Shown piece by piece: positions 3-8,846 of a stretch of DNA of 8,846 bases. The DNA is from Nanobdellota archaeon (GTDB lineage: Archaea > Nanobdellota > Nanobdellia > Nanobdellales > Nanobdellaceae). The notes under the pieces are model-generated. The model did no database searches, was not told the DNA's origin, and saw nothing but the letters and a program-made list of their open reading frames with translations. Numbering within the stretch: the first letter of the stretch is position 1; each line of letters opens with the position of its first letter. The stretch lies in NCBI GenBank assembly GCA_020697515.1, contig JAIXNB010000037.1, positions 1 through 8,846 on the forward strand. The letters run 5' to 3'. The translations under genes and the position numbers were made by a program.

Positions 3-401
3 CCTGCAGATCCATCATCTATCAAAATTATTATTAATAAAAATGAGTTGGCGATTCCCAGTTGTAGTAGCTATAAGCATAACACGCCTCTAGTACTTAC
101 CCCATATTTAAAAACAGGTAGGAACATTATACTAGTAGATAGCGATCATAAGGTAGTTTTGAGAGATATGGAAATAGAGATAGAAGAACCCAAAATCTTT
201 CATATGTTTAAACGACCGAGAAATGGAATACTATATCTGTTTGTGATAAAAGGAAGAGGTATTCTGAGAATAAACAATTGTACTTATGAAATTACACCAC
301 AAACCGCAGTATTAAACATAAAACGATGTATAATGGATAATAACTTACTGATACTGGAAGCAAACCCATATATAGAGATATCAAAAATTGTTATAACATG
401 A
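3..401 (+). CDS. C-terminal part (or whole, if TTG-48 is the start) of an uncharacterised beta-rich protein; first gene of the putative surface-protein cluster
   Basis: The frame is open from the left window edge (..PADPSSIKIIINKNELAIPSC..), with no ATG or GTG before the TTG at 48, so the gene probably starts upstream of the window. The stop overlaps the next start as ATGA (398-401). The C-terminus ...EISKIVIT carries the KIV[IT] motif also found at the ends of the two lipoproteins. No known family recognised. Confidence 0.45.
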   Translation, partial: PADPSSIKIIINKNELAIPSCSSYKHNTPLVLTPYLKTGRNIILVDSDHKVVLRDMEIEIEEPKIFHMFKRPRNGILYLFVIKGRGILRINNCTYEITPQTAVLNIKRCIMDNNLLILEANPYIEISKIVIT

Positions 402-475
402 AAGGGGAGAGCACAGTTGGTATAATTGTATTAATTATTTTTCTAGTGTCTATAGGGTACATTGCAATAAATTTC
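398..475 (+). other. Candidate class III (prepilin-type) signal peptide or signal-anchor segment
   Basis: MKG-ESTV followed by a hydrophobic helix fits the [KR]-[GA] / small-hydrophobic pattern cleaved by archaeal prepilin peptidases. An uncleaved type II anchor is an equally possible reading. Confidence 0.4.
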
Positions 476-1723
476 AAAGAAGTTATTGAAGAGTATATTA
501 GAGGAGCGTCTGGGAAGGTTGTTACTGAGCCTGTTGAGGCTACTGCTAGATCTATAAGGGAAATGTACACATCATTGCAAAAAACTATGGACCTAGTAAC
601 GAATCCTTGGAAGTATATGTATGAAATAGAGGAAGCTAAGCCATCCGAAGAAGTTATAAGAGAACAATATGGGATCTCTATTAGTTATTTATCACCATTA
701 TCTCATGCTATATTTAAATGCAAGAATAAAAATTGTAGTGATATTATAATCCCTGATGTGTATCTGGTTTCCTACATTAGATACAATTTTCCCGAATGGA
801 AAAGAATTAGATTTTCTTGCAATGTAAGTACAACCTATGATGAATGCTTTTCTGTACGTCACTGTAATATCTCAAAAAAGGAGATTAAAGGAGTGAAAGG
901 AATATTAGCACAACAAATAAAGGTTACTCTAGAGTTTAACAAAAATATACCAATATGTCATGATTGTTCTATAACCACTAATCCAAAAGAATGTATAAAT
1001 GAACCAGTTAGATTTAAAGATTACGGGTTTAGAGCAGAGGTAACATTAAAAGCTAATTTTAATGTGGAAGCGAATACAACTTTCAGATCCCTAGTAACCA
1101 CTGATACAGTACTATCAGAGGCTATAAGTAGAAAGAAATCTATTTACAACGTACTAAATATAGACAGTACGAAATATGATGTAGCATATTATACAGGGCT
1201 TTTGGATTTCCCCCATGTAAGTATATCTAGATTAGGTAGAAATTACAATTATCCAATAATATTATTCGGGGAAAATACAGAATCTTATGATGTGTTACTG
1301 TTTGGAATCCGGGAATTAGATAATATAAAGTCTATAAACAATCTCAAGGTATATATATTTACATCTAAGGGCATTGACTTAAACTACTTAAATTTAGAAA
1401 ATGGAAAATGTGAAAATAATTATAGGCACGAATTTAAAATTGATGATTCTAAAACCTTATTTTCAATAAACTGCAGAGAACAAAGTAGCAATCTCGAGGG
1501 TGAGAAGCATTATTGTGATATTAAAATAACCAAAAAGTTTGTAGATAATTATAGAAGAAGGGATGGAGATCCATTGAAATTTATAATACCTATATGTCTG
1601 AGAAAAAAAGAAACATTTATTGGAGATTATGGAGAGTTATTGGTACGAGCATATATTAATTATACCTATGAAGTATCTGCGAGTTCGGAAATACCCTATA
1701 CTCCCTTTTATACAGAGATTTAA
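398..1723 (+). CDS. Cys-rich exported protein (441 aa) with a pilin-like class III signal peptide or N-terminal signal anchor; function unknown
   Basis: Long ORF coupled to the upstream ORF by an ATGA overlap. The N-terminus MKG/ESTVGIIVLIIFLVSIGYIAINF has a short charged leader (K at -2, G at -1) followed by about 22 hydrophobic residues. The rest is hydrophilic and beta-rich, with 12 Cys and 5 N-X-S/T sequons (NCS, NVS, NIS, NTT, NYT). The IPIC motif occurs at aa 184 and aa 397. Confidence 0.7.
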   Translation: MKGESTVGIIVLIIFLVSIGYIAINFKEVIEEYIRGASGKVVTEPVEATARSIREMYTSLQKTMDLVTNPWKYMYEIEEAKPSEEVIREQYGISISYLSPLSHAIFKCKNKNCSDIIIPDVYLVSYIRYNFPEWKRIRFSCNVSTTYDECFSVRHCNISKKEIKGVKGILAQQIKVTLEFNKNIPICHDCSITTNPKECINEPVRFKDYGFRAEVTLKANFNVEANTTFRSLVTTDTVLSEAISRKKSIYNVLNIDSTKYDVAYYTGLLDFPHVSISRLGRNYNYPIILFGENTESYDVLLFGIRELDNIKSINNLKVYIFTSKGIDLNYLNLENGKCENNYRHEFKIDDSKTLFSINCREQSSNLEGEKHYCDIKITKKFVDNYRRRDGDPLKFIIPICLRKKETFIGDYGELLVRAYINYTYEVSASSEIPYTPFYTEI

Positions 1724-1752
1724 TTTTTATTTTACAATTAGTTAAGTTTTAG

Positions 1753-1763
1753 ATTTATATTTA
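1753..1763 (+). promoter_or_regulatory. TATA-like box upstream of the first lipoprotein gene (implies a leaderless or near-leaderless mRNA)
   Basis: ATTTATATTTA is centred about 26 nt upstream of ATG 1784. It is preceded by oligo-T tracts (1724-1728, 1730-1733) just after the stop of the 441-aa gene, which could act as an archaeal terminator. Such AT-rich matches are common in this genome. Confidence 0.35.
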
Positions 1764-1783
1764 TGAACATAGTTAGATAAGTA

Positions 1784-1843
1784 ATGGATAGAAGAATAAT
1801 AGGATTTGCATTTATATTTCCATTGATACTATTGGCAGGATGT
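1784..1843 (+). other. Signal peptide with lipobox (LLAG/C)
   Basis: Matches the classical lipobox [LVI][ASTVI][GAS]C directly after a hydrophobic core. The DNA GCAGGATGTACTAATA (1835-1850) differs at only one position from the equivalent site of the next gene (2876-2891). Confidence 0.6.
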
Positions 1844-2824
1844 ACTAATACTCAGACAAAGTCATCATCAATGTTAATGTCTTCTTTTAGATGTACACTA
1901 CCATCACAGCCAGGAGTAATAGATGTAGAAGTTACTGGTTTTCCTTCAGAGATTATTGCATCAACATCGGATAAGGAGGGGTCTCCGGTAGTGTTTTCTA
2001 TCGAATTCAAGAATACTATTACAGGAGTTGATTATCCTGAGGATAGGATAAATATAAAATATACATTTATCCCAAATATTGGAAAAAAATATACTAAAGA
2101 TGTACAAATAGATTTGGCATATTATGATCCAACTTCCAATCAAATAACACCAAGTACAATTTATGAACAAGTAGAAACAAAAATTCCGGCTGGAATGTCT
2201 GAAATGGGCGTATACAGAGGTGTACTTAGGTGGGAATTTATAGGAAAAACAAAAGTTTATATACCTATATGTATTGGTTATGATCCTAAAATAACTAAAG
2301 TCTCTCCAGAAGTAATGGTTTGTGATCCAACTAGTTTGCCAGAACCATGTTACAGCGCATCACCTGTTATAGTTAATATAGAAAGTGTAAAATCTATAGG
2401 AGCCCCGAGAAGAGGAGGATCCGGGATAAGAGGGTACTATAAAATAAGGTTCTCTTTAGAAGACATATATGGTGGACTTGATGGTTGTAATGGAGATTAT
2501 TTATCAAATACAAAGAGAATTAAGGTGGATAAAATCGAGCTAAAAGTAGACGATTTATCTATAGAGGAGGGAGGTGATATATTCAGGTGTTATCCATTAG
2601 AGAAAAAAGATGGTAAGAGTTATATATACCTAAGACCTTCAAACGAGATAGTATGCTATGTTTATTTAGACAAGCTAGCTGATAAATGTAAACAAAATAA
2701 TAATTGTTATTTGGATGAGAACTCATTGAAACTCGGAAAATCTGCTATGATATCCATAAAATTAGAGTATGATTATTGTAGGAGTATGTCGCTTGGTCCT
2801 GCTAAAATAGTTACTTTACCTTAA
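1784..2824 (+). CDS. Putative lipoprotein (346 aa), Cys-rich extracellular domain, unknown family
   Basis: The N-terminus MDRRIIGFAFIFPLILLAGC has a positive n-region, a hydrophobic h-region and lipobox L-A-G-C (Cys20, nt 1841-1843), followed by a Ser/Thr-rich tether (TNTQTKSSS). The mature part has 10 Cys. IPIC occurs at aa 160. The C-terminal module is MISIKLEYDYCRSMSLGPAKIVTLP. Confidence 0.75.
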   Translation: MDRRIIGFAFIFPLILLAGCTNTQTKSSSMLMSSFRCTLPSQPGVIDVEVTGFPSEIIASTSDKEGSPVVFSIEFKNTITGVDYPEDRINIKYTFIPNIGKKYTKDVQIDLAYYDPTSNQITPSTIYEQVETKIPAGMSEMGVYRGVLRWEFIGKTKVYIPICIGYDPKITKVSPEVMVCDPTSLPEPCYSASPVIVNIESVKSIGAPRRGGSGIRGYYKIRFSLEDIYGGLDGCNGDYLSNTKRIKVDKIELKVDDLSIEEGGDIFRCYPLEKKDGKSYIYLRPSNEIVCYVYLDKLADKCKQNNNCYLDENSLKLGKSAMISIKLEYDYCRSMSLGPAKIVTLP

Positions 2825-2830
2825 TAAGTT

Positions 2831-2884
2831 GTGAGGTGTATATATTTTTTATTTTTGCTCCCCATTCTATTATTAGCAGGATGT
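2831..2884 (+). other. Signal peptide with lipobox (LLAG/C)
   Basis: LLLAGCTN is identical in its last six residues to the LLAGCTN of the upstream gene. Confidence 0.55.
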
Positions 2885-3721
2885 ACAAATATTCCTAATG
2901 AACCTAAACCTAAAACAAAACCTAAGGAACTTCTTATAACACCGATATATGAAATATGGCCGGATAAAATTACTGAGACTTACGCTAAAAGCTCAGGATT
3001 TTATTTCACATTTAAAGTATATAACCCGTATAATAAAACTAATTTTACTGCTTGTTTAGACTCTTTTGTTGGAAGAGAATGGAGTGTCATTGGAAAGAGA
3101 TGTATAAATGAAGAACTTGCTAAGGATACCTATAAGATATTTAGTTTACCAGTAGGTGGAAGAATAAAATTAGTATTGGGTTTAGAAAGCAAGCAAAAAT
3201 ACGAGGATGTTAGAGTAAATATATGTTATAATGCTACTCAAATCTTTATTTTAACAGGATGCGTACCGAAAAATATAGGAGAAGGTCATAATCAAGCATC
3301 CATCTGCAAATACAAGATTATCGAATCTCTAAGGGGGCCAATTAAGGTATATAGTGCTGTTATGTCCTCCAATAGAACACATTACATCTTAAGCTTTAGA
3401 CTAAAATATTTTCCTGATAACCGAACATATATATCTAGCGACTCTACGATTCTTTCAAGTAAATGTTATTTATCTTATGTGATAAAAAGTGGTGGAATAG
3501 TTGAAATACCTATAAATATTAGCTATATAACAAATACTTTGTATTTTAAATACACCAAAGTTAATGTAAGTAGTGTAGGGGAAGATATAGGAGTTACTAT
3601 AATTTTTGATAAAAATAAAGCAGGTTTGACACCGAGGGATATTATTTCTATTAAGTTAAAATTAAGTTATATTATTTTTAAACAAATGAATTTTGGAAAA
3701 ATTGTTATAGAACACTCTTAG
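2831..3721 (+). CDS. Putative lipoprotein (296 aa), paralog of the preceding gene at its signal peptide and C-terminus
   Basis: GTG is the only possible start after the in-frame stop at 2825-2827, 6 nt past the preceding stop codon. The N-terminus is MRCIYFLFLLPILLLAGC (lipobox Cys18, nt 2882-2884), followed by a Pro/Lys-rich tether (NEPKPKTKPKE). The mature part has 6 Cys and 7 N-X-S/T sequons. The C-terminal IISIKLKLSYIIFKQMNFGKIVIEHS aligns with the 346-aa protein with identical spacing. Confidence 0.7.
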   Translation: MRCIYFLFLLPILLLAGCTNIPNEPKPKTKPKELLITPIYEIWPDKITETYAKSSGFYFTFKVYNPYNKTNFTACLDSFVGREWSVIGKRCINEELAKDTYKIFSLPVGGRIKLVLGLESKQKYEDVRVNICYNATQIFILTGCVPKNIGEGHNQASICKYKIIESLRGPIKVYSAVMSSNRTHYILSFRLKYFPDNRTYISSDSTILSSKCYLSYVIKSGGIVEIPINISYITNTLYFKYTKVNVSSVGEDIGVTIIFDKNKAGLTPRDIISIKLKLSYIIFKQMNFGKIVIEHS

Positions 3722-6299: not shown

Positions 6300-6911
6300 T
6301 TATCCTTTTCTCATTTTTATTTCTTCACATATATTTAAAGATAACATTCTTTTCGCAATTTCTTTAGGCAATGTGTATATCTCTTCGGGATTGAAGGGAC
6401 CATATATCTTTCCATCAGGACCAACAATTTGAGAAAATTCTTTTGTAAATATAACTAGAACTTTGTTTATTCTCTTTGTTCTTTTTTCCATCAGTGGTTT
6501 AACATCTTCGAATAGTTTATTTATTTCTGGAGGCTCTCCTAAAAATATATTTTCCAAAACATGTTTATAATACCCCCTTAACAATGCGGATACCACATCA
6601 AATAATATTCTCTCTTCTCTAGTCATATCATTTCTCTCAGCTATCTTTATATTCTCCTTCGCCTCGAATAAAGCTAGATTAATTAGTTTCTCTAGTCTAA
6701 TGTTAACAATTTGTTTTATGAGCTCCTTTAGGTTCTCTAACTCTAACTTTAACCTTTTATGTTCTTCATCTTCTTCTCCTAATTCAAGAAATCTTTTATA
6801 TCTTTTTATCATATCTGAAACACGTTTATAAAATTGTTCTTCAAGTGGTTCTAACTTATTTTTCATCCTTTTTTCTCTTTCATAGACTGCAAAAATATCA
6901 GAAATATCCAT
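6300..6911 (-). CDS. gins51: GINS subunit, Gins51/Gins15 (Sld5/Psf1-like) family
   Basis: The N-terminal A-domain pattern is MDI..I....E.....L.PL.E.FY.RV...I...........E.......LE..N....I...VNIRLEKLINLA. The C-terminal B-domain pattern VLVIFTKEFSQIVGPDGKIYGPFNPEEIYTLPKEIAKRMLSLNICEEI resembles the (V.FL.D.P.FVG.D...YGP....D...LP...A..L......EEI) pattern of archaeal Gins51. This is pattern recognition only. Confidence 0.6.
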   Translation of the reverse strand: MDISDIFAVYEREKRMKNKLEPLEEQFYKRVSDMIKRYKRFLELGEEDEEHKRLKLELENLKELIKQIVNIRLEKLINLALFEAKENIKIAERNDMTREERILFDVVSALLRGYYKHVLENIFLGEPPEINKLFEDVKPLMEKRTKRINKVLVIFTKEFSQIVGPDGKIYGPFNPEEIYTLPKEIAKRMLSLNICEEIKMRKG

Positions 6912-6923
6912 GGGGTATTATAG

Positions 6924-6931
6924 TTTTAAAA
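6924..6931. promoter_or_regulatory. Palindromic TATA-like box TTTTAAAA in the divergent gins51 / reverse gyrase region
   Basis: It is centred about 27 nt upstream of ATG 6955 (the reverse gyrase start preferred here) and about 17 nt from the gins51 ATG (6911, minus strand). The sequence is its own reverse complement, so it could be read in both directions. Confidence 0.35.
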
Positions 6932-6954
6932 TGATAAGTACGTTACACATGATT

Positions 6955-8709
6955 ATGTATCTGTATATAAAACAAGGATGTTTTAATTGTCAAAATACTA
7001 TATATTCTGAGAGACTAAGGCATAGTGTTCCCTGTGAGAGAGATATTGATGATGAAGCTTATTTTGATGTAATTCAAAAGTTTCATGATAAAGAATCATT
7101 ATACGAGTATTTATATATGTATCTAAATAGAGAAGGAAGGCTTTTTAAGTTTAAGGAGTTGTATGATCTACACAAAGCTACAAGAGATTTCATTAGTTTC
7201 TTTCTGAAAATTTTGGATTCTGAACCGTGGTCCATACAAATAACTTGGTTTAAAAGATTGTATAACAAATTCTCATTCTCAATGATAGCTCCAACAGGAA
7301 CAGGGAAGACCACTTTTATAGCAGTATCCTCGATCTATTTCTCCTCAAAGTTAAATAAGAAGATCTATATAGTATTACCGACAACAGTTCTTGTAGAACA
7401 AGTGTATGAACGAATTGTTCAATTTGTAGAGAAAATAGACACTTCTCTAAATGTTGTTGCATATCTTAGAAAGAACAAAAAGGAAGCTAAAGAAAGAATA
7501 ATCAAGGGAGAATTTGATATACTTATAACATCTAATCAATTTTTGTCTAGGAATTTTGATATACTTAAAGATAAAAAATTTGATATAATCTTTGTTGATG
7601 ATGTAGATGCATTCTTCAAAGGATCTAAAAATATAGAGAGAGTTCTAATCCTCTTGGGGTTTACAGATGAAGATATAAATACCGCTTATGAGATGATAAA
7701 AGCTAAAAGGCAAGGAGATTTTGAATTGGTAAAGAAACTTAATGAAAAGTTAGAAAAAGTAAAATCCAAACCTCATGGAATATTAATATTATCTTCAGCT
7801 ACCGGAAGGATTCGTGGAACAAGGACAAAGTTATATAGAGAACTTTTGAATTTCACGGCAGGAACAGGTACTACCAAAATTAGAAATATAATTGATACAT
7901 ATGTACTGCCTAAACAGGATTTAAAGATCGAAGTATATAAATTGGTGAATCTTTTAGGGGACGGAATAGTTATATTTGTTACTAGAGAACAAGGAGTGAA
8001 GTTTGCAAAGGAACTTTATGAATTTTTGAGGGATAGAAATGTCAGAGCAGGTATAGTTGTATCTGAAATCAAAGGAAGTACAGAGAACATCAAAAAGTTT
8101 GCTAATAAAGAATTAAATGTCCTTATAGGTATTGCACACTTCTATGGATTATTGGTTAGAGGGTTAGATCTACCTACTAGAGTTAAATATGTTATATTCA
8201 CAGGAATTCCTAAAATAAGAATTAACTTAACTAGAAAAGAGAGGAATGCTAACAATTTGATGATACTTGCAAACATACTTTTAGATATCTTACCACAAGA
8301 TCGATCTAGAGAACTAAAAATATTATTAAGAAAACTCCAAAGAGCTTTTAGGAGGCTGTCTTCAGAAGCTTTTAGGGTACTATCTGAAAGCTTTGAGCGA
8401 GGGACATCAATTGATGGTTGGTTGGAAAATCTTAGACAACAATTAGAAAGGTTGTACAATATTGTATCAGAAATATTAGATAAAGAGGATATTATTGAGA
8501 AATTAAAGAACCATCCAGATGTTAGTATAACAATTTCTAATGGAGATATTTGGTTAAACTTACCGGATATAAAAACCTACATACAAGCATCTGGAAGGAG
8601 CTCTAGATTATATGCAGGGGGTATTACTAAAGGTTTAAGTATCATACTAGTCGATGATGAAAAACTGTTGAGAAGTTTGGAGAGAAAGATGAAACTATAT
8701 TTTGATTAA
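6955..8709 (+). CDS. rgy: Reverse gyrase, N-terminal helicase-like half only (split reverse gyrase)
   Basis: The maximal ORF begins at 6910. ATG 6955 (or 6949) is preferred because reverse gyrases start a few residues before the zinc finger (here CFNC-x14-CERD) and a TATA-like box lies about 27 nt upstream. Diagnostic reverse gyrase motifs: F..FF......PW.IQ..W.KR......FS.IAPTGTGKTTF (Walker A at 7288-7314), ILITSNQFLSRN, FDIIFVDDVDAFFKGSKNIERVLILLGF (motif II near 7594-7608), ILILSSATG, FRELLNF-like LYRELLNFTAG, LNVLIGIAHFYGLLVRGLDLPTRVKYVIFTGIPK, and YIQASGRSSRLYAGGITKGLSIILVDDEKL (motif VI at 8584-8607). The ORF ends 40 aa after motif VI, with no Toprim/topoisomerase IA domain. Confidence 0.9.
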   Translation: MYLYIKQGCFNCQNTIYSERLRHSVPCERDIDDEAYFDVIQKFHDKESLYEYLYMYLNREGRLFKFKELYDLHKATRDFISFFLKILDSEPWSIQITWFKRLYNKFSFSMIAPTGTGKTTFIAVSSIYFSSKLNKKIYIVLPTTVLVEQVYERIVQFVEKIDTSLNVVAYLRKNKKEAKERIIKGEFDILITSNQFLSRNFDILKDKKFDIIFVDDVDAFFKGSKNIERVLILLGFTDEDINTAYEMIKAKRQGDFELVKKLNEKLEKVKSKPHGILILSSATGRIRGTRTKLYRELLNFTAGTGTTKIRNIIDTYVLPKQDLKIEVYKLVNLLGDGIVIFVTREQGVKFAKELYEFLRDRNVRAGIVVSEIKGSTENIKKFANKELNVLIGIAHFYGLLVRGLDLPTRVKYVIFTGIPKIRINLTRKERNANNLMILANILLDILPQDRSRELKILLRKLQRAFRRLSSEAFRVLSESFERGTSIDGWLENLRQQLERLYNIVSEILDKEDIIEKLKNHPDVSITISNGDIWLNLPDIKTYIQASGRSSRLYAGGITKGLSIILVDDEKLLRSLERKMKLYFD

Positions 8710-8735: not shown

Positions 8736-8807
8736 AGTTAACAATATGTTAAATAGATGTTAACACCATGTTAACTAATGTTAACATAATCTATGAAGGT
8801 TGTTAAA
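8736..8807. repeat. Helically phased array of (A/T)GTTAA(C/A) boxes (four GTTAAC palindromes plus two GTTAAA variants)
   Basis: The boxes are AGTTAAC 8736-8742, ATGTTAAA 8746-8753, ATGTTAAC 8757-8764, ATGTTAAC 8768-8775, ATGTTAAC 8778-8785 and TGTTAAA 8801-8807. The spacing of box starts is 10, 11, 11 and 10 bp, then about 22 bp. By eye, only one other GTTAAC occurs in the remaining 8.7 kb (6702-6707, inside the gins51 CDS). Confidence 0.7.
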
Positions 8808-8846
8808 ATATTAAGGGCAGGATATCCTAAGGATATATATTATTAA

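Follow-up and report, generated by a model that had tools for sequence, protein, structure and literature searches.

What does a regularly patterned stretch of non-coding DNA do between two genes at a locus where intergenic gaps are mostly <60 nt? The question is raised by the right-hand end of an 8,846-nucleotide stretch from a Nanobdellota archaeon (contig JAIXNB010000037.1, GenBank assembly GCA_020697515.1, GC ~31%; the whole of this stretch is called the window below). There, the N-terminal half of a split reverse gyrase is followed by a spacer of 167 nt, running from the stop codon (8707–8709) to the next gene and occupied by a row of short boxes with a TTAA core. The next gene, which lay beyond the reach of an earlier sequence-only reading of the window, is identified in longer contigs as TmcA, a tRNA(Met) cytidine acetyltransferase of the NAT10 family whose ATG falls at window position 8877. 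Because other gaps are so short, non-coding spacers of 170–310 nt, as found at this position, are unlikely to be junk. We conclude that the array is a real, conserved and locus-specific cis-element of very small archaea from hot springs, and we describe it as a new archaeal element, a putative phased-repeat operator.

Among cellular genomes, those of the Nanoarchaeota rank with the smallest; they encode very few transcription factors, hardly any operons are conserved, and gene regulation in the group is almost unexplored. Here a long, conserved and clearly selected cis-element occupies one of the few sizeable non-coding gaps, and it sits between two genes tied to life at high temperature, reverse gyrase and TmcA/Nat10. 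TmcA/Nat10 activity supports thermotolerance in Thermococcus (bioRxiv 10.1101/2024.10.25.620255; PMC6393311). The array also occurs in Nanoclepta minutus and Nanobdella aerobiophila, both of which have been grown in co-culture, so that a binding protein and its effect can be looked for directly.

Boxes, spacing and repeat unit

The window DNA, nanoarchaeal and Nanopusillus-like, is also found in contig DQUP01000035.1 of the metagenome-assembled genome (MAG) GCA_015662215.1 (locus L001) and in two European Nucleotide Archive assemblies, L002 (25.7 kb) and L003 (11 kb); a window coordinate equals the L002 coordinate plus 507. The features of the array and its flanks are as follows, in window coordinates.

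6910–8709, + strand: reverse gyrase N-terminal (helicase) half-gene, an open reading frame (ORF) with Pfam matches to DEAD, ResIII and zf_Rg; stop TAA at 8707–8709
8736–8743, no strand: box 1, AGTTAACA, with the right half of the palindromic consensus intact
8737–8838, + strand: 102-nt unit with a 100% identical copy 3,845 bp downstream (L002 8230–8331 and 12075–12176)
8747–8753, + strand: box 2, TGTTAAA, of the left half-site type
8758–8765, no strand: box 3, TGTTAACA, a full 8-bp palindrome
8769–8775, + strand: box 4, TGTTAAC
8779–8786, no strand: box 5, TGTTAACA, a full palindrome 10 nt after box 4
8801–8807, + strand: box 6, TGTTAAA, with a degenerate partner TATTAAG 8 nt further on (8809–8815)
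8819–8837, no strand: second phased motif, with the palindrome AGGATATCCT at 8819–8828, and GATATC (8821–8826) and GATATA (8832–8837) 11 nt apart
8840–8846, + strand: putative TmcA TATA box, TTATTAAA, of which the window holds only the start, its end being cut by the window edge

The boxes lie where the sequence-only reading placed them, and its description of a helically phased array is borne out. When the 18-kb contig was shuffled 300 times under a Markov model, no chain of at least four TTAA[AC] at 10–12 nt arose; Tandem Repeats Finder assigns the array a period of 11 with 5 copies, and in-phase TTAA pairs in the spacer number 14/19 against 0.7 expected (P<0.001). The earlier spacing of 10, 11, 11 and 10 needs amending, as GTTAA starts at 8737, 8748, 8759, 8770, 8780 and 8802, which in a single register gives 11, 11, 11, 10 and 22. 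Three exact ATGTTAAC octamers (at 8757, 8768 and 8778) were reported correctly, as were four copies of GTTAAC within 50 bp (8737–8785) and one elsewhere, at 6702. These had been set against about three copies predicted for the window from base composition; the clustering stands, and the total of five is only marginally unusual (2.0 expected; five or more in 11/200 shuffles). Significance rests on the clustering and phasing of the boxes, not on the GTTAAC total.

The same locus was compared in relatives, and the percentages given with them below are identities of the reverse gyrase protein. The repeat unit was derived by splitting the arrays into 11-nt registers from one anchor, without a motif search. 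Columns 1–7 read T (21/24), G (23/24), T, T, A, A and A or C, and columns 8–11 carry almost no information. The unit is thus seven conserved bases, TGTTAA(A/C), plus four free ones, with a spacing of 11 at most steps. Within the array of one relative (L005, 65%), pairwise identity is 96% for the core and 33% for the spacer bases, the random level for their composition. At the level of sequence, such a contrast marks a 7-bp site under selection and not a slippage repeat in decay; neutral decay is disfavoured because the core is near-invariant while the four spacer bases are free. We consider it quite unlikely that the array is a functionless AT-rich minisatellite, in which an 11-nt unit slips within a tolerated spacer and the 102-nt duplicate is a by-product of rearrangement. 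Such a repeat would fit the range in box number (6 to ~25 per array), the great abundance in metagenomes of 11-mer tandem repeats containing TGTTAA, and the loss of the spacer in three lineages with no visible replacement. It does not fit spacer bases saturated with change around so uniform a core, arrays held at the same locus down to 47%–57% protein identity, or genomes that are otherwise tightly packed.

The sequence-only reading had taken GTTAAC for a palindromic site bound by a dimeric protein. Several full TGTTAACA palindromes do occur in the window and in L004 (86%), and the palindrome TG-TTAA-CA survives as a consensus; but GTTAAC itself is species-specific, and nearly all boxes of the 65% relative are TGTTAAA. 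As far as the compared arrays go, the palindrome exists as a consensus only and is not the conserved feature. A restriction–modification target (GTTAAC is the HpaI site) is likewise ruled out, as relatives use GTTAAA. What is found in both L005 and L371 (57%) is an order of orientations, with TTAACA boxes near reverse gyrase and TGTTAA boxes near TmcA. The presence of two orientations on one strand favours recognition of duplex DNA over a single-stranded RNA motif.

An RNA-level element, in which UGUUAA motifs or a long hairpin in the reverse gyrase 3′ untranslated region or in a small RNA (sRNA) serve as a binding platform or processing signal, is very unlikely. Nanoarchaeum equitans offers a precedent, its reverse gyrase N-half NEQ434 being flanked by two C/D box sRNAs (PMC3491384). 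The genomic position is the same here, beside a nanoarchaeal reverse gyrase N-half; unlike the N. equitans sRNAs, the array has no C/D boxes or Rfam match and carries its 11-nt unit in both orientations. The array is probably transcribed, as no oligo-T terminator lies between the stop codon and the array in the window, and the L005 spacer contains a perfect 27-nt inverted repeat and folds better than shuffles (z = −3.3). Against this, the fold of the window spacer is marginal (z = −2.0 against shuffles), as palindromic boxes predict, and the long inverted repeat of L005 is not kept in Nanoclepta minutus (L373) or Nanobdella aerobiophila (L374), so that a conserved long-range hairpin is not supported. 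In the window species, at its second copy, and in L004 and L005, both strands were free of candidate C/D pairs (C box RUGAUGA and D box CUGA 30–80 nt apart); no Rfam family matches at E ≤ 1; and there is no tRNA or tRNA half at the array. A clustered regularly interspaced short palindromic repeat (CRISPR) array, with repeats of 24–40 nt and unique spacers of similar length, is ruled out by the 11-nt period and 4-nt spacers. The earlier statement that the boxes resemble neither CRISPR repeats nor origin recognition boxes (ORBs) nor C/D sRNAs was correct. The inverted repeat of L005 lies within its 310-nt spacer (11120–11146 and 11271–11297) with TTAA at its outer ends, and a 16-mer, TTAACATTCTTTTAAC, is common to this region and L371.

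Intrinsic curvature, which the sequence-only reading proposed to predict, was rejected. In a wedge model the arrays were not above Markov shuffles (fraction at least as curved 0.45–0.96), and phased A-tract controls bent strongly; the test is approximate.

The locus in related genomes

Phased TTAA-core arrays occupy the reverse gyrase–TmcA spacer in the window species, L004, L005/L006/L312 (65%), L371, Nanoclepta minutus (54%) and Nanobdella aerobiophila (47%). L004 has ten boxes, and its promoter-proximal part matches the window box for box, including the spacings of 11, 10, 22 and 8; the paired arrangement of box 6, TGTTAAA with a degenerate partner, is kept as well. The L005/L006/L312 group has ~25 boxes, nearly all TGTTAAA, in a spacer of 310 nt. 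In L371, four (A/T)TTAACA boxes at 11 nt are followed by boxes of the GTTAAA type. The spacers of Nanoclepta minutus (175 nt) and Nanobdella aerobiophila (215 nt) are TTAA-rich, the latter with the least regular phasing. TTAA is enriched 2–4 fold in all seven spacers, and 10–12-nt phasing is significant in each (P<0.001). In ~100 kb of sequence from these loci, phased chains of at least four TTAA are confined to this spacer and the L002 duplicate (expected ≤0.07 per locus). The array is therefore kept in relatives and, as described below, repeated 3.8 kb away in the same genome, contrary to both observations (no conservation, no repeat elsewhere) that the sequence-only reading had named as refuting it.

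Wider pattern scans (GTTAA ×4 in genomes, TGTTAAM ×3 in IMG/VR, TGTTAA ×5 in metagenomes) returned, among the matches listed, unrelated 11-mer repeats, Prevotella AGTTAAAGGG repeats, bacterial runs of four to five TGTTAAG and phage arrays; the only nanoarchaeal match among them was L312, of the same species as L005. A metagenome contig, L317 (10.5 kb, with two similar arrays), was set aside as not nanoarchaeal, with no ORF of at least 80 amino acids.

In L002 the two copies of the 102-nt unit enclose a segment with TmcA, Trm1 and, on the other strand, a tRNA-Glu(UUC) gene. Beyond the 102 identical nucleotides the second copy carries one additional box; this copy lies between Trm1 and a convergent gene for a 198-amino-acid protein; recent duplication or gene conversion would be its simplest origin. 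Short-read assemblies break at this locus because of the exact 102-nt duplicate, a practical warning for anyone working here: contig DQUP01000035.1 ends inside the unit (window 8821), and the window itself ends 8 nt after it. In L004 (2160–2309) the array is followed by a degraded TATA box (TTATTGAAA) and then by the C-terminus of the 198-amino-acid gene (tblastx 77% over 35 amino acids, E = 6e-16). As the array there adjoins this gene, the 3.8-kb TmcA–tRNA–Trm1 segment is absent from L004. The orientation of tRNA-Glu in L002 is inverted relative to L005.

These rearrangements bring to mind a mobile or recombinogenic repeat, of the kind of a miniature inverted-repeat transposable element or a recombination site at breakpoints. 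Two 100% identical 102-nt copies with assemblies breaking inside them, a junction in L004 where the array marks the place of a missing 3.8-kb segment, and an inverted repeat flanked by TTAA in L005 would all suit it. We hold it to be highly improbable all the same: the window copies are without terminal inverted repeats or target-site duplication, insertion does not provide an orthologous position across deep lineages, and no further copies turned up in the Joint Genome Institute metagenomes or IMG/VR with a pattern specific to the 3′ portion of the 102-nt unit.

A centromere-like partition site and an origin-associated element had both been offered as roles by the sequence-only reading, and neither is supported. 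The more general idea, that of a chromosome-level element (an origin or its control region, a fork barrier, a centromere-like site or a domain boundary) with a filament-forming binder, we regard as having very little likelihood. It draws on the single-locus occurrence of the array in the sampled DNA, on a GINS gene 1.8 kb upstream, and on the sub-arrays of L005 and L371, which diverge from a short AT-rich centre with a conserved TTATTACTAC and recall inverted origin boxes around an unwinding element. Parallels exist in CtrA, which binds TTAA-N7-TTAA in the Caulobacter origin (PMC8640480), and in R1 parC with its two sets of five iterons (PMC2241845). The opposed sub-arrays are not seen in the window or L004, and the boxes of 7–8 bp are unlike ORBs. 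Across 10 kb on either side in six lineages (L002, L005, L007, L371, L373, L374), no ORB-like dyad, no orc1/cdc6 (or whiP) gene and no gene similar to ParA/SegA or ParB was found. Partition genes are absent from the neighbourhood, which consists of the reverse gyrase half, TmcA, tRNA-Glu, Trm1, GINS, L44e and ORFs of unknown function without a relevant domain. Local GC skew just follows gene orientation, and an element with a second copy 3.8 kb away in one genome, and with none at all in three related lineages, is hard to fit to an essential origin or centromere. A motif T(T/A)ATTACTA(C/T) occurs mid-spacer between opposed sub-arrays at ~11240–11250 in L005, ~5108–5117 in L371 and ~11790–11800 in L373, and does not occur in the window.

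The other genes of the window encode eIF2-alpha, Nop10, PAC2, an MJ0538-family protein, L44e and GINS51. Four consecutive ORFs at 48–3721 (117, 441, 346 and 296 amino acids) match no Pfam family, yet their synteny between Pelota and eIF2-alpha extends across Nanoarchaeota. The closest homologues of the window reverse gyrase half, which includes a zinc finger, are split halves of 570–600 amino acids from Nanoarchaeota. It is divergent from GINS51 with hardly any spacer between them, and two starts are possible: the first ATG at 6910 gives 599 amino acids, and the start chosen by gene callers, 21 nt on at 6931, gives 592. In the complete genome of Nanobdella aerobiophila, an IS605 OrfB/Cas12f-like TnpB gene (L374 1–482) lies ~10 kb upstream of the reverse gyrase half.

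A putative operator at the TmcA promoter

Among the roles put forward by the sequence-only reading, control of the next gene, by an operator or an upstream activating array, suits the locus best. A TTATTAAA-like box is kept upstream of TmcA in six lineages, ~25–35 nt before the ATG, and the array extends to this TATA-like box in every lineage that has a spacer. In L005, L371 and L373 this box shares the phase of the array, and so does a TTAA that overlaps the start codon. The lineage TATA consensus, taken from upstream regions on these contigs (for example, the tRNA-Glu and eIF2-alpha promoters), is TTTTTAA[AC] at ~30 nt before starts, a distance that implies mostly leaderless mRNAs; it agrees with box A of N. 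equitans, TTTAAA (PMC3491384). Between array and TATA box lies the pair GATATC-N5-GATAT(C/A), in the window and in L004, where it is kept as GATATC-N5-GATATC (2155–2171); more distant relatives lack it, and it may represent an operator of its own.

We infer that the array is a cis-acting element bound by protein as double-stranded DNA, a row of TGTTAA(A/C) sites with the consensus palindrome TGTTAACA, in which the four unconstrained bases between sites would set an 11-bp period and place successive sites on one face of the helix. The binder would be sequence-specific, probably a small protein of the winged-helix or ribbon-helix-helix type that oligomerises along the DNA; binding cooperatively, it would cover the whole spacer from the reverse gyrase N-half to the TmcA TATA box. 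Its occupancy could set TmcA promoter activity, with TBP and TFB either occluded from or recruited to the adjacent TATA box, and the bound array might block read-through from the reverse gyrase gene. Box number would shift by gain and loss of 11-nt units. That a protein filament on the array controls TBP/TFB access at the TmcA promoter and insulates it from reverse gyrase read-through is a proposal to which we give about an even chance.

A number of observations weigh against the proposed filament. Spacer and array are missing altogether from three lineages: in L007 (56%) the next gene begins 5 nt past the reverse gyrase stop, and in L368/L369 (62%) and L370 (65%) a membrane-protein gene overlaps that stop. 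Where TmcA does not follow reverse gyrase (L372, 77% TmcA identity), the array is missing too. Convergent genes flank both the second copy in L002 and the only copy in L004, neither of which has an obvious gene to regulate beyond it. Unannotated ORFs near the array gave no DNA-binding domain and no candidate binder, no winged-helix Trans_reg_C domain was found in ~20 kb around the locus in each genome, and OmpR-family regulators are, to our knowledge, rare or absent in Nanoarchaeota. Finally, the array boxes are one base off the lineage TATA consensus, which makes TBP itself a possible binder. As for the copies between convergent genes, the order reverse gyrase → TmcA is widespread across lineages and presumably ancestral; given this spread, we read the second copy and the L004 layout as recent lineage-specific rearrangements that are uninformative on the original function.

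The similarity to TATA boxes deserves weighing in its own right. The boxes, (T)GTTAA[AC], might be tandem weak TBP/TFB sites that soak up TBP, offer alternative promoters or extend the TmcA promoter in a tunable way, and the membership of the TmcA TATA-like box in the phased series of three lineages speaks for this. We think it unlikely. The G of column 2 and the T of column 1 are strictly kept, and genuine TATA boxes here have T at column 2; near reverse gyrase the CA after TTAA is kept, the reverse complement of TG, for which recognition by TBP supplies no reason; and TBPs every 11 bp would probably clash sterically.

A broader version of the filament idea, going beyond the tuning of a single promoter, makes the array a docking track for a filament-forming protein, with the CtrA/PhoP-like 11-bp geometry in a lineage not known to have such regulators, that would serve as a boundary or control element between the thermoadaptation genes reverse gyrase and TmcA, whether as roadblock or insulator, fork barrier, or centromere- or origin-control site. 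In this general form we find it similarly unlikely.

Comparison with known systems

Phased TGTTAA boxes are met outside the archaea. Contigs from bacterial genomes and metagenomes (loci L014–L048, L250, L272, L315 and L363) carry rows of four to five TGTTAAG boxes spaced by exactly 11 bp, some of these rows closely followed by an ATG. Among the bacterial matches listed, three are from one Sulfotelmatobacter MAG and others are from Rickettsiales-like MAGs, where they resemble CtrA boxes. Judged by their sequences these arrays are probably OmpR-family operators. In a Midichloriaceae MAG, one look-alike array precedes an ORF resembling the small subunit of ribonucleotide reductase, and the downstream genes gave no clear proof of a Pho or CtrA connection. 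In IMG/VR, at least 120 viral contigs (loci L128–L247) carry 3–7 phased TGTTAA(A/C) boxes, and AAATGTTAAAGAAATGTTAAAGTTTTGTTAAA recurs in many related AT-rich phages; these boxes are a conserved phage element.

A nanoarchaeal array can be set beside the operator of the archaeal MarR-family protein ST1710 from Sulfolobus tokodaii, whose crystallised promoter DNA contains ATTGTTAACAAT (PMC2724296). This 12-mer is found verbatim in the second copy (L002 12072–12083), and box 1 of the window reads AGTTAACAAT. The ST1710 operator is a single pseudo-palindromic site and not an 11-bp-phased array, only one box matches past the 8-bp core, and no MarR gene was seen near the array.

ParR on parC and the arrays of other ribbon-helix-helix proteins (omega heptads, ParG boxes) offer a likeness in assembly. 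In these systems a small dimer binds cooperatively to many short repeats and forms a nucleoprotein filament, and the repeats flank or abut a self-regulated promoter. Arrays of omega-type proteins tolerate direct and inverted units. The nanoarchaeal array differs in having no adjacent partition ATPase, actin-like gene or small ribbon-helix-helix gene, and in being chromosomal, between two housekeeping genes.

The geometry matches that of bacterial OmpR/PhoB-family sites, which share a core of 6–7 bp, a spacer of 4–5 bp and an 11-bp head-to-tail period on one helix face. The box bound by Bacillus subtilis PhoP, TTAACA, is the reverse complement of TGTTAA. We know of no two-component systems or OmpR-type winged-helix regulators in nanoarchaea, and no cognate regulator was found near the array. 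Known OmpR/PhoB sites have 2–4 boxes, against 6 to ~25 here, where both orientations are used. PhoP of Mycobacterium tuberculosis reads direct repeats of 7 bp set 4 bp apart (PMC4832192), PhoP of Streptomyces binds 11-nt direct repeat units (PMC2275107), and the CtrA box, TTAA-N7-TTAA (PMC8640480, PMC11264516), has the same TTAA core letters 11 bp apart. Placement may also be alike: OmpR/PhoB sites lie at or just upstream of promoters, and the array adjoins TTATTAAA in six lineages, although convergent genes flank both the second copy and that of L004. Because no cognate protein has been found, we would read the architecture shared with these systems as a resemblance in working and not as membership.

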